The notes under the pieces were generated by a model, which saw only the letters and a program-made list of their open reading frames with translations, had not been told where the DNA came from and made no database searches. Position numbers and translations under genes: made by a program. Of a stretch of 53,681 bases of DNA, positions 39,533-42,349 are shown in pieces. The DNA lies in the NCBI GenBank assembly GCA_020632155.1, contig JACKGE010000003.1, positions 1 through 53,681 of the forward strand, in the 5' to 3' direction. The DNA comes from Candidatus Nomurabacteria bacterium. GTDB taxonomy: Bacteria; Patescibacteriota; Minisyncoccia; Phycocordibacterales; UBA918. Each line of letters opens with the position of its first letter. Within the stretch, counting starts at the first letter, position 1.

Positions 39533-40702
39533 ATGTCTGTATATCGCTACACTGTTATTGAAAATAAACTACTGACCCCAACCGTCCGGTCGATTGTCAT
39601 GTCGGCGCGCAAAGATAGCAAACCGCTTCTATTTGAACCTGGACAGTACGCGTCGTTTAGCCTTCACGATTCGCTACGGCCAACCGCCAATCGCTGCTTT
39701 TCTATTGCTTCCTCACCACGTGATCGCTATCGACTTGAATTCTCTGCACGAACCGGAGGCGCGTACACCAATGCGCTTGCCCGCCTTACTGCCGGCGCAA
39801 CTGTTGATGTGCGTGGCCCATACGGTGATTTTATATTCAAGGACCACGAACAATCCGACCTCGTCTTTTTGGCTGGTGGTATCGGCATCACTCCGTTCAT
39901 GAGCATGATGCGCTACGCTGCTGACTTGTCTTTACCTAACAAACAACACCTTATCTTCAGTTGTCGAAGTCAGGACGATATTCCGTTCTTCAGTGAGTTA
40001 CGAGAACTACAGCAGCGGAATCCAAATCTACGCCTAACGTTGGTGATCGCTGGTGGCCCAACAGACAAACTCGCCGGTCTTGAGGTCCTAACCGGTCGCA
40101 TGGATGAAGCTGCCCTGCGCGAGCTTCGGCCTGACATCACCGCGCCCACGTATATGATTTGCGGCCCTAGTGGATACATTGCTGCTATGCAAAATCTCCT
40201 TACTCGTGCTGGCGTCCCCTCGGGGCAGATCCGCAGTGAGTCCTTCTCACAGGGTCGCGCTCGGCGCGGGAGCGCACTTATGCGCTGGCCGCTAAATGCC
40301 TACGCGCTCTCCGGTCTCTCACTCATTGCCGCTGGTGCCTTTGTGGTTGGTAGCGACCTTAGTCAGACGTTGCCATTCATTCAGGACGACCTCGAACAGA
40401 TGACCACCTCTGCCAGCCAGCTTGAGGGTATTGCTGATAATGTACTTGCTAACATTGAATCCATCCCGCCCCAAGTCGATACTGACACCACCGCCACACC
40501 AGTCGAGGAACACGTTACCGTCACCGATACGGTAACGAAGCCAAGTACCGCCACCACAAAGACTGTTACCACCACCCCGACACCAGCAGTGGTGACACCT
40601 ACCCCTACCCCCGTAACACCAACACCGGTTGTGGTTACACCAACTCCTACCCCAACGCCAACCACCAAAACCACTGCCCGTGCGCGCACCCGCACTTCAT
40701 AA
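39533..40702 (+). CDS. FAD/NAD(P)-binding ferredoxin-reductase-type oxidoreductase fused to a TM helix and a Thr/Pro stalk
   Basis: RCFSIAS, GPYGDF, LAGGIGITPF, MICGPSG; TM LSGLSLIAAGAFVVG; TP repeats; ends ARARTRTS. Confidence 0.85.
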   Translation: MSVYRYTVIENKLLTPTVRSIVMSARKDSKPLLFEPGQYASFSLHDSLRPTANRCFSIASSPRDRYRLEFSARTGGAYTNALARLTAGATVDVRGPYGDFIFKDHEQSDLVFLAGGIGITPFMSMMRYAADLSLPNKQHLIFSCRSQDDIPFFSELRELQQRNPNLRLTLVIAGGPTDKLAGLEVLTGRMDEAALRELRPDITAPTYMICGPSGYIAAMQNLLTRAGVPSGQIRSESFSQGRARRGSALMRWPLNAYALSGLSLIAAGAFVVGSDLSQTLPFIQDDLEQMTTSASQLEGIADNVLANIESIPPQVDTDTTATPVEEHVTVTDTVTKPSTATTKTVTTTPTPAVVTPTPTPVTPTPVVVTPTPTPTPTTKTTARARTRTS

Positions 40703-40713
40703 AAGATATATCT

Positions 40714-41625
40714 ATGACCAAGGAGACGTACCTGCAGAGCAACGAGCTACTCGGCACTACTATTGAGCTGCGCATCGCTACCGATGCGCCGAGTGGCATT
40801 GAGGAGTCCTTTGCCGGCGCGTGGCAGTACCTAGCAGAATTCAATGCTCGCTTCAGCCGCTTTTTGCCCGACAGTGAGCTATCGCGCGTTAACGCCAGCG
40901 CAGGTCAGCGCATAGAGGTCTCAGCTGAGTTTTGGGCGCTCATACAGGCTGCTAAAGAATTGTATACACTCTCAAACGGTTTGTTTGATCCACTGGTGCT
41001 GCCTGAACTCCAGCGCAGTGGCTACCTTGAGTCATTGGTGAATACAGAAAAAGCGGCGCCCGATTACCGTGACCGCAAGGCAGCGGCCTTTTCTGCAGTT
41101 GAATGCGGGCACGGCTCGGTTACCCTACCACCTCATAGTGCTCTTGATCTTGGCGGTATTGGCAAGGGGTACGCTGCTGATGCACTGGGGCAGCTGCTTA
41201 GCGACTCGTGGCTACACCTATGCCTCTCACTTGGGGGTGATATATATGTGAGCGGCAGTGAAGACGAGGAACCGTGGATTCTTGACGTGGAAAGTCTAAA
41301 TGGCGAGACCATCACTTACCAAGGTACTGACGCCCCCTATGGCATTGCTACTTCAGGGCTGATACGCCGCGGCAGTACCCCTCATCTCATTGATCCGCGT
41401 ACGCGGGAGCTAGCGTACGCTGAGTACAAACTCGCAACCGTAGTAGCGCCAACCACCACTGCCGCTGACGTACTGGCTTCGTGTATACTCATAGCAGGAC
41501 CAGCTGAGGCAGAGCGCCTTATAAAGAGCGGCACCATCACCGCGGCACTCCTCCAAAAACGAGGTGGAGCGCCGCTGCTGCTCGGTAGTGGTAATGGTAA
41601 TGCTAGTGGGTTCACTATTTCTTGA
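40714..41625 (+). CDS. apbE: FAD:protein FMN transferase (ApbE family), no signal peptide
   Basis: FSRFLPDSELSRVN, DLGGIGKGY, SLGGD, ATSG, HLIDPRT, ADVLAS. Confidence 0.92.
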   Translation: MTKETYLQSNELLGTTIELRIATDAPSGIEESFAGAWQYLAEFNARFSRFLPDSELSRVNASAGQRIEVSAEFWALIQAAKELYTLSNGLFDPLVLPELQRSGYLESLVNTEKAAPDYRDRKAAAFSAVECGHGSVTLPPHSALDLGGIGKGYAADALGQLLSDSWLHLCLSLGGDIYVSGSEDEEPWILDVESLNGETITYQGTDAPYGIATSGLIRRGSTPHLIDPRTRELAYAEYKLATVVAPTTTAADVLASCILIAGPAEAERLIKSGTITAALLQKRGGAPLLLGSGNGNASGFTIS

Positions 41626-41632
41626 TTTACGT

Positions 41633-42349
41633 ATGAAACAATTTTTTCGATATCGTTCAGTTATTCTCTCTGGGGTATTTGCACTGATAACCTTCACGCT
41701 ACTGAGCGGCACCCTCTACGCCGCCGGCGCCAATATTGTTGTCGATAATTCTGCCGGTACCTCCATTGCCGCTGAAGTGTTGCAGAAGGTCGCTGATTCA
41801 TGGCCATGGTACCTCACTAGAGCTTCAGGACTGGTGGCGGCCGGCGCCCTAATACTTCTCATGCTATCTGGTATTGGCTTTATCACCGGCACCAGTTACC
41901 GCTTTCTAGAGCCACTCACCGCGTGGGCCACGCACCGCGCCCTTGGTATTGTGCTGGCTATTGCACTAGCCCTTCACATGGTGGCGCTCTACTTCGATCA
42001 CTTCGTACCGTTTAGTGTCGTCGACCTCTTGGTACCATTTGCCTCAGAGTATCAAATCGTGACGTGGGGCAACTTGTCACTTGGTTCACTCTATGTGGCG
42101 CTCGGTGTACTGGCTTTTTACTGCATCGCGCTCATTGTCGCTGTCTCACTGCTCTGGGTGAATAACAAAGACTACAAATGGAAAGTGGTGCACCTGCTCA
42201 GCTACCTCGCCATGGCGTTTGTCTTTGTGCACGCCATTGCTATCGGTACCGACCTTGCTGCTGGCGCACTACGGTTTATCTTTATTGGACTTGGAGTACT
42301 AGTGCTCGTAGCTGCACTTGTGCGCGCGTGGCGAGCCTTCACGCTGTAG
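41633..42349 (+). CDS. Ferric reductase-like transmembrane (heme b) protein
   Basis: WYLTRASGLVA, conserved His pairs (THRALG...LHM; VHLLSY...VHA), multiple TMs; start MKQFF at 41633. Confidence 0.85.
   Translation: MKQFFRYRSVILSGVFALITFTLLSGTLYAAGANIVVDNSAGTSIAAEVLQKVADSWPWYLTRASGLVAAGALILLMLSGIGFITGTSYRFLEPLTAWATHRALGIVLAIALALHMVALYFDHFVPFSVVDLLVPFASEYQIVTWGNLSLGSLYVALGVLAFYCIALIVAVSLLWVNNKDYKWKVVHLLSYLAMAFVFVHAIAIGTDLAAGALRFIFIGLGVLVLVAALVRAWRAFTL

Follow-up and report, generated by a model that had tools for sequence, protein, structure and literature searches.

The described systems closest to the operon reported here are the MsrQ-like flavinylation clusters (Meheust et al. 2021, PMC8238504; Huang et al. 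2024, PMC11334425), in which the gene for the flavin transferase ApbE is normally paired with an FMN_bind gene, often together with a NAD-binding domain, a survey of such clusters having kept only components with signal peptides (PMC8238504). The operon occupies positions 39533-43060 of the plus strand in a stretch of 53,681 nucleotides (positions 1 to 53,681 of contig JACKGE010000003.1, assembly GCA_020632155.1; hereafter the window) from a Candidatus Nomurabacteria bacterium, a representative of the Candidate Phyla Radiation (CPR), and its four open reading frames (ORFs) are separated by gaps of 11, 7 and 9 nt (table 1). They encode an FNR-type NAD(P)H dehydrogenase continued by a transmembrane (TM) helix and a long tail (the FNR-TM-tail protein), ApbE, a ferric-reductase-domain (FRD) haem protein and a fourth protein. 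As in the MsrQ-like clusters, a two-haem PF01794 protein adjoins apbE and an FNR-type NAD-binding module would provide the cytoplasmic entry for electrons. Unlike them, the operon offers no substrate of the FMN_bind (or DUF2271/DUF3570) kind bearing the canonical [ST]-G-A-[ST] motif: a search of the 95.8%-complete genome with PF04205 was empty, in agreement with a preliminary description of this DNA, according to which no separate FMN-binding protein is present, and the operon proteins of the relatives lack the canonical motif as well. Moreover, ApbE here has no signal peptide, the feature by which those surveys filtered, the reductase is a separate, self-anchored polypeptide, and the candidate carrier of the flavin is the end of a disordered tail rather than a folded domain. 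Sequence comparison and structure modelling support the operon as a variant of the MsrQ/NOX-like flavinylation systems. On balance, we lean towards a split NADPH-oxidase/MsrQ-like electron-export module, in which a flavin-bearing tail would take the place of the FMN_bind domain.

Other known systems share parts of this design. With the NADPH oxidase (NOX)/FRE family the operon has in common the six helices of its haem protein, the His-x13-His and His-x12-His pairs on two of them and an FNR-type dehydrogenase, and its counterparts in other CPR lineages are genuine fusions of FRD and FNR; the dehydrogenase of the window, in contrast, is not fused C-terminally but encoded by the upstream gene as an anchored polypeptide of its own, and ApbE and the tail module are always attached. 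The operon may also be compared with the two-component Fre-MsrQ system of Escherichia coli. As for the tail, some substrates of ApbE have no dedicated fold. Seven residues suffice for the engineered 'flavin-tag', which performs best at the end of a protein (PMC12052999), and in FMN_red proteins the flavin is carried by an unstructured extension of the C-terminus (PMC11334425). The tail end resembles both, since here too a short linear motif lies at a C-terminus that is free and disordered, with Ser/Thr as the (here candidate) acceptor; it differs in the motif itself ([TS]-x-V/T-S or S-G-V-T, without the leading Asp) and in its predicted position, about 115 residues from the membrane and on the far side from the enzyme, not beside a pre-existing flavin pocket.

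Conservation of the tail end and its linkage to apbE

The FNR-TM-tail protein ends in ARARTRTS, and the preliminary description proposed its terminal Thr/Ser as a non-canonical flavinylation site. A classification of the tail ends of 137 family members bears on this proposal. In class A, defined by Ser as the last residue (n=31), the conserved unit is P-[KR]-[TS]-x-[VT]-S-COOH and not RTRTS as such, so the proposal needs amendment in this detail; nevertheless, all 31 ends read [TS]-x-x-S and possess the two hydroxyls, at -3 and 0, of the canonical D-x-x-[ST]-G-A-[ST] (the Ser at 0 by definition). Pro is found at -5 in 28 of these sequences and Lys or Arg at -4 in 27, Thr or Ser stands at -3 in every one of them, and position -1 is Val in 21 and Thr in six, with Arg, Thr or Lys at -2 and Lys, Arg or Pro at -6. 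Class B, accounting for about 95 of the 137 members, has the Cys-bracketed end C-T-T-[TS]-x-S-G-V-[TK]-T-C-x, the core of which, S-G-V-T, departs from the canonical S-G-A-T solely in having Val for Ala. Aligned with each other, the two classes share [ST]-x-V-[ST]. The condition that the preliminary description had set for its own refutation, a lack of conservation of the terminal motif among homologues beside apbE, is therefore not borne out.

In 12 of 12 close loci of the Saccharibacteria type, the genes for FNR-TM-tail, ApbE and FRD follow each other in this order, and the fourth gene is present in every locus of this architecture (type 1) whose contig reaches far enough. Among distant CPR loci, drawn from a sample of 401 genomes of the class, L113-L115 keep all four genes and L116 and L117 the first three; a PF01794 gene is clustered with apbE in the 12 close loci and in 11 distant ones. 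A second architecture (type 2) was encountered in L111, L118-L121, L123 and partly L112. Here, the haem and FNR domains form one NOX-like protein of 515-547 amino acids (L111, L112, L118-L121, L123) with bacterial TSP3 repeats at its outer N-terminus, and the gene immediately upstream of the fused one is apbE, whose product once more lacks a signal peptide. In six loci a separate gene two genes upstream of this pair encodes a tail protein of 143-188 amino acids, with a signal-peptide-like start, a Pro-rich low-complexity body and the end [QKA]-P-R-T-T-V-S. The existence of a separate tail gene in the type-2 apbE operons indicates that anchor plus tail is an independent module travelling with apbE and the NOX-like core; to judge from these sequences, it is this module that is joined to the reductase in the window protein. 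Genomes of the window's own order (G148, G214, G356 and others) mostly yielded only FNR matches of about 30% identity inside reading frames of 513-519 amino acids, which suggests that the fused architecture is common in this order and that the split form is patchily distributed.

A conserved ending could also be a sorting, processing or glycosylation signal (a C-terminal recognition or O-glycosylation site) that carries no flavin. Thr/Pro/Ser-rich linkers are typical of surface proteins, the motif stands at a free C-terminus in most members, and some relatives have the self-cleaving Peptidase_S74 behind it, all of which would suit such a role. A general signal should, however, mark many exported proteins, whereas the class-A ending is unique to the tail protein among the credible ORFs of its own genome, which argues against a general sorting signal and led us to reject that candidate. 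Furthermore, ten of the 12 P-R-T-T-[VIM]-S-stop endings in the 401 genomes lie within these apbE operons, and one relative (L117) carries four internal P-x-T-S-V-S repeats along its tail. Hence, we judge a signal of this kind to be quite improbable. The repeats of L117 suggest several flavins on one line and are reminiscent of the multi-flavinylated 'beads-on-a-string' proteins (PMC11334425), from which they differ in being six-residue motifs in disordered sequence and not FMN_bind domains.

Peptidase_S74 was seen behind the tail in three relatives. In L039:732-2147 and L041:6001-7470 the tail is extended by this endosialidase-chaperone domain, through which the tail could be shortened and might become trimeric, and in L036:5971-7422 an Ig-like repeat is added ahead of the Cys-bracketed end. 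Peptidase_S74-type cleavage in MyRF takes place N-terminal of the nucleophile Ser (PMC8326128); by analogy, it would mature the P0102/L039 tail to ...T-T-A-S and that of L041 to ...S-S-K, which is only a partial fit.

ApbE and its modelled complex with the tail end

The operon ApbE is the only ApbE in the genome. A profile built from it and its 23 relatives (alignment A3, 24 operon ApbEs) matches Vibrio cholerae ApbE (6nxi) at 4.7e-44. In the latter enzyme, the catalytic His257 acts with Ser241 and Asp285, and FAD (flavin adenine dinucleotide) is bound by D-x-G-G-x-x-K-G and G-G-D (PMC12052999). S214, H224 and D252 of the operon enzyme, which align with the Ser241/His257/Asp285 centre, are invariant in 24 of 24 sequences, and the D-L-G-G-I-G-K-G-Y stretch (D145-G152) and G-G-D (G175-D176), aligned with the FAD site, are invariant in A3 as well. 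Judged by such residues, both the operon ApbE and the haem protein look functional.

ApbE (A3) was co-folded with tail residues 345-389 (alignment A4), FAD and Mg in three runs, alongside three controls. The interaction prediction score from aligned errors (ipSAE) reached 0.94, 0.94 and 0.95, against 0.00 for the best control; in calibration, that mark was attained by 58 of 80 solved complexes and by two of 110 mismatched pairs, counts that are only rough here because our own alignments were used and ligands were included. The runs share at least 66% of their contacts, with a predicted local distance difference test (pLDDT) value of at least 59 for the partner. The interface brings the last 19 residues of the tail (371-389) against K151, S172, G174-I177, W188-E193 and I211-G215 of ApbE, i.e. 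the FAD, Mg and catalytic-Ser motifs. The matches of the ApbE profile in the PDB are to the enzyme alone, with no ApbE-substrate complex among them, so the result is unlikely to be a recall of a solved enzyme-substrate complex. The modelling thereby supports binding of the tail end in the active-site cleft. Altogether, comparative and modelled evidence (motif conservation, linkage of the tail module to apbE, an orphan ApbE and the co-fold) supports the proposed terminal Thr/Ser as a non-canonical flavinylation site.

We consider it unlikely that ApbE acts on a cytoplasmic target instead, leaving the tail another role, only as a wall-spanning spacer or a partner-binding line. Such a target might be the FNR domain or a loop of the haem protein on the cytoplasmic side, to either of which ApbE might attach FMN (flavin mononucleotide) covalently; alternatively, ApbE might work as an FAD pyrophosphatase and so provide a Fre-like reductase with FMN. 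The absence of a signal peptide from 24 of 24 operon ApbEs would agree with a target inside the cell, as would the company that apbE also keeps with fused FRD-FNR proteins lacking a tail of their own. In the FNR domain, T79 (the phosphate-binding position of G-x-[FY]-T) is Ser or Thr in 51 of 51 apbE-linked proteins and Lys in 18 unlinked FNR-like proteins from CPR, and 'flavin-fixing' beside a bound FMN phosphate is known (PMC12052999, PMC11334425). On the other hand, T79 has no likeness to the flavinylation motif and the cytoplasmic parts lack any conserved [ST]-G-A-[ST]-like sequence, while the tail module tracks apbE in both architectures and its end lies within the catalytic cleft in the co-fold. 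Besides, Ser or Thr at position 79 is nothing out of the ordinary for a member of the FNR superfamily.

A search for S-G-A-T-like motifs in the outer loop of the haem protein, the fourth protein and the FNR domain brought up no conserved one. Two candidates, D-N-S-A-G-T-S in the haem protein and T-A-G-A-T in the FNR domain (at its standard G-D strand), were rejected as flavinylation motifs, neither being conserved.

Topology and the putative electron path

The preliminary description of an FNR domain followed by one TM segment and a long Thr/Pro stalk is borne out by Pfam, hydropathy, AlphaFold2 and composition. Residues 1-240 were modelled with a pLDDT of about 90 from an alignment with 27 relatives, and R54, F56, S57 and G116-I117-G118 are invariant among 38 relatives. 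A long helix is modelled at residues 248-289, and W252, P253, Y257, D275 and P281 around the membrane helix are conserved at 90% or above. This single helix is preceded by four Lys/Arg and followed by four Asp/Glu, a distribution of charge that predicts a cytoplasmic FNR domain and an external tail. The tail opens with a conserved I-P-P-Q-V-D-T segment (40463-40486), and the juxtamembrane segment is kept in class-A relatives. The 79 residues from 311 to the end are 73% Thr, Pro and Val, with a pLDDT below 50 and no secondary structure, and the whole length past the membrane helix is about 115 residues (117 counted).

The location of the tail outside the cell is thus predicted from charge, from the Cys-bracketed class-B ends and from the Ig-like or Peptidase_S74 additions in relatives. 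These same features, together with the signal-peptide-like start of the separate tail proteins, speak against a tail that is flavinylated yet cytoplasmic, i.e. a tethered substrate flavin shuttling between the Fre-like FNR domain and the inner haem. Free flavin does shuttle between E. coli Fre and MsrQ, a tail inside the cell would remove the compartment problem posed by a cytosolic ApbE, and the flavin motif of the FNR domain, R-x-F-S-x-x-S-S-P, seems to resemble that of Fre. Nevertheless, with one helix after a cytoplasmic domain, basic before and acidic after, we find this arrangement very improbable indeed.

The haem protein has six hydrophobic helices. Its longest ORF starts at GTG 41564, inside apbE, and ends at 42349, the likely true start being ATG 41633, 7 nt past the apbE stop. 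Its pairs H101/H115 (spacing 13) and H187/H200 (spacing 12) are invariant in 23 of 23 relatives; this is the two-haem signature of the NOX/FRE family, from which haem binding is predicted.

For the electron-export module that we favour, we infer the following course of events. NAD(P)H in the cytoplasm would reduce the flavin bound by the FNR domain, a domain anchored to the membrane through the helix on its C-terminal side, and electrons would cross the membrane via the two b-haems of the FRD protein. Outside, they would reach FMN esterified by ApbE to the conserved end of the disordered tail, the acceptor residue being, if the analogy of [ST]-G-A-[ST] is a guide, most likely the Ser that closes [TS]-x-V/T-S. 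With a tail of this length, the flavin could move to and fro between the outer haem and an electron acceptor located in the wall or past it. Candidates for this acceptor are O2, Fe(III) and a partner kept in place by the fourth, acidic Ig-like protein.

The compartment question

Several findings weigh against tail flavinylation as part of such a module, the main puzzle being that the enzyme is inside and its substrate outside, unless modification precedes export. The preliminary description had noted an ApbE without a signal peptide, and rightly so: the ORF at 40714-41625 cannot be extended upstream, and none of the 24 operon ApbEs has a hydrophobic N-terminus, be it a signal peptide or one with a lipobox. 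Without a signal peptide the operon enzyme belongs with the cytosolic ApbEs, which are known (PMC12052999). ApbE would therefore act on the tail end while this is still unfolded and inside the cell, where it can draw on FAD, with export of the tail following afterwards, and such an order would explain both the use of a linear tag instead of a folded FMN_bind domain and the presence of a cytoplasmic ApbE in an organism without a known FAD exporter. We know of no precedent for flavinylation before export, however, and we offer only tentatively the specific scenario, on the doubtful side in our estimate, that the C-terminal tag, still unfolded, receives its FMN ester from an ApbE in the cytosol and is then threaded through the Sec channel to the outside.

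The tail end itself also departs from expectation. The canonical Gly at -2, Ala at -1 and Asp at -6 are missing from class A, class B having the Gly and a Val; in a tested enzyme, changing the Ala of the tag to Val or the Gly to Ala kept about 50% of flavinylation, and Asp to Ala had a minor effect (PMC12052999). Some relatives end otherwise, in ...T-P-S-K-[IL]-P or in a P-P-P extension, and the repeats of L117 are internal. In the co-fold, the lowest expected error falls on T386, deepest in the cleft, and not on the terminal Ser, which makes the choice between S389 and T386 as the acceptor uncertain on the modelled evidence. Finally, the Ferric_reduct score of the haem protein (27.9-28 bits) is at the Pfam cut-off.

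The fourth protein, neighbouring genes and genome background

The preliminary description bounded the cluster at 39533-42349; its three ORFs are as it described them, but the conserved fourth gene, at 42359-43060, was left out. Its product combines a membrane anchor with a beta-sandwich of Ig-like type, in which a Cys pair is invariant; a Pro-rich linker comes next, then a strongly acidic Glu/Asp tail (alignment A2). The protein was modelled by AlphaFold2 with a pLDDT of 80.7; Foldseek and Atlas searches returned generic Ig-like/FnIII/MG/Big_14 folds only and no functional lead. Type-2 operons carry in its place an acidic secreted protein, encoded between the tail gene and apbE (L111, L118-L121 and L123; e.g. 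L118:4730-5263). This coiled-coil protein has a stretch of Glu/Asp, a middle part that is rich in Gln and coiled-coil-like, and at its end the conserved D-x-D-G-I-x-D...D-P-H-P...N-G-I-S-D; it matches no Pfam family above threshold. The fourth protein and its acidic type-2 counterpart suggest a cation-binding or tail-binding partner.

Table 1. Features of the operon and of the adjoining genes in the window. Parts of the FNR-TM-tail protein are listed below it.
Feature	Position	Strand	Length (amino acids)	Basis
FNR-TM-tail protein	39533-40702	+	389	Pfam FAD_binding_6 and NAD_binding_1
FNR-type NAD(P)H dehydrogenase domain, residues 1-240, predicted cytoplasmic	39533-40252	+		PF00970, PF00175
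Single membrane helix, residues 254-272, N-in/C-out by charge	40292-40348	+		Kyte-Doolittle 1.72
Disordered Thr/Pro/Val-rich tail, residues 311-389	40463-40699	+		AlphaFold2, composition
Terminal A-R-T-R-T-S and stop, candidate flavin-attachment tag	40682-40702	+		class-A logo; co-fold contacts
ApbE flavin transferase	40714-41625	+	303	Pfam ApbE PF02424, 149 bits (cut-off 25.6)
Ferric-reductase-domain protein	41633-42349	+	238 (from ATG)	Pfam Ferric_reduct PF01794
Fourth operon gene	42359-43060	+	233	no Pfam match
DsbB-family disulfide-bond protein	43064-43615	-		
Trp/Arg-rich protein	38910-39413	-	167	no Pfam match
HD/HDOD-domain protein (weak)	38275-38970	-		
YkuD L,D-transpeptidase with SH3 domain	37031-37930	-		

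Tail-to-tail with the fourth gene, whose product has the invariant Cys pair, lies a gene for a DsbB-family protein; it was rejected as a part of the operon, because it is not found beside it in 12 related loci. On the other side, the gene for the Trp/Arg-rich protein diverges from the operon, the longest ORF of the HD/HDOD-domain gene overlaps this upstream gene by about 60 nt, so that the HD/HDOD-domain gene probably starts later, and the YkuD gene adjoins the HD/HDOD-domain gene. A scan of the locus for promoters and terminators gave nothing above shuffled expectation.

The expectation of the preliminary description that the organism scavenges FAD and haem fits the genome, in which searches for FAD synthetase, flavokinase and ferrochelatase were all empty. 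Near-identical copies of the stretch occur in activated-sludge and wastewater assemblies from several studies, and contigs from four runs were compared; no RNA run is listed among those containing the stretch. A single contig, at depth 3.6 in a 2022 activated-sludge run, lacks one base at 40689 in a run of C within the terminal-motif codons, which may be an assembly error or reflect a strain with a frameshifted tail end.

Implications

The current view of flavinylation by ApbE is that it requires an acceptor domain with a fold, together with an enzyme that is exported and provided with exported FAD. If our interpretation is true, a natural fold-less terminal tag and an ApbE without a signal peptide would change both requirements, and would explain many 'orphan' apbE genes left out of surveys that require signal peptides. 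Our literature search revealed no paper linking ApbE to CPR bacteria or describing a natural terminal flavin tag; a naturally evolved tag of this kind would be useful for protein labelling. The FNR-TM-tail protein would be one polypeptide with redox centres on both sides of the membrane, in which the flavin is tethered on a disordered line, tens of nanometres long, that is itself part of the NAD(P)H dehydrogenase. Such a built-in electron shuttle would serve ultra-small cells unable to make or export flavins, and it would give the supposedly fermentative CPR bacteria an outlet of reducing power to oxygen, iron or a host surface.

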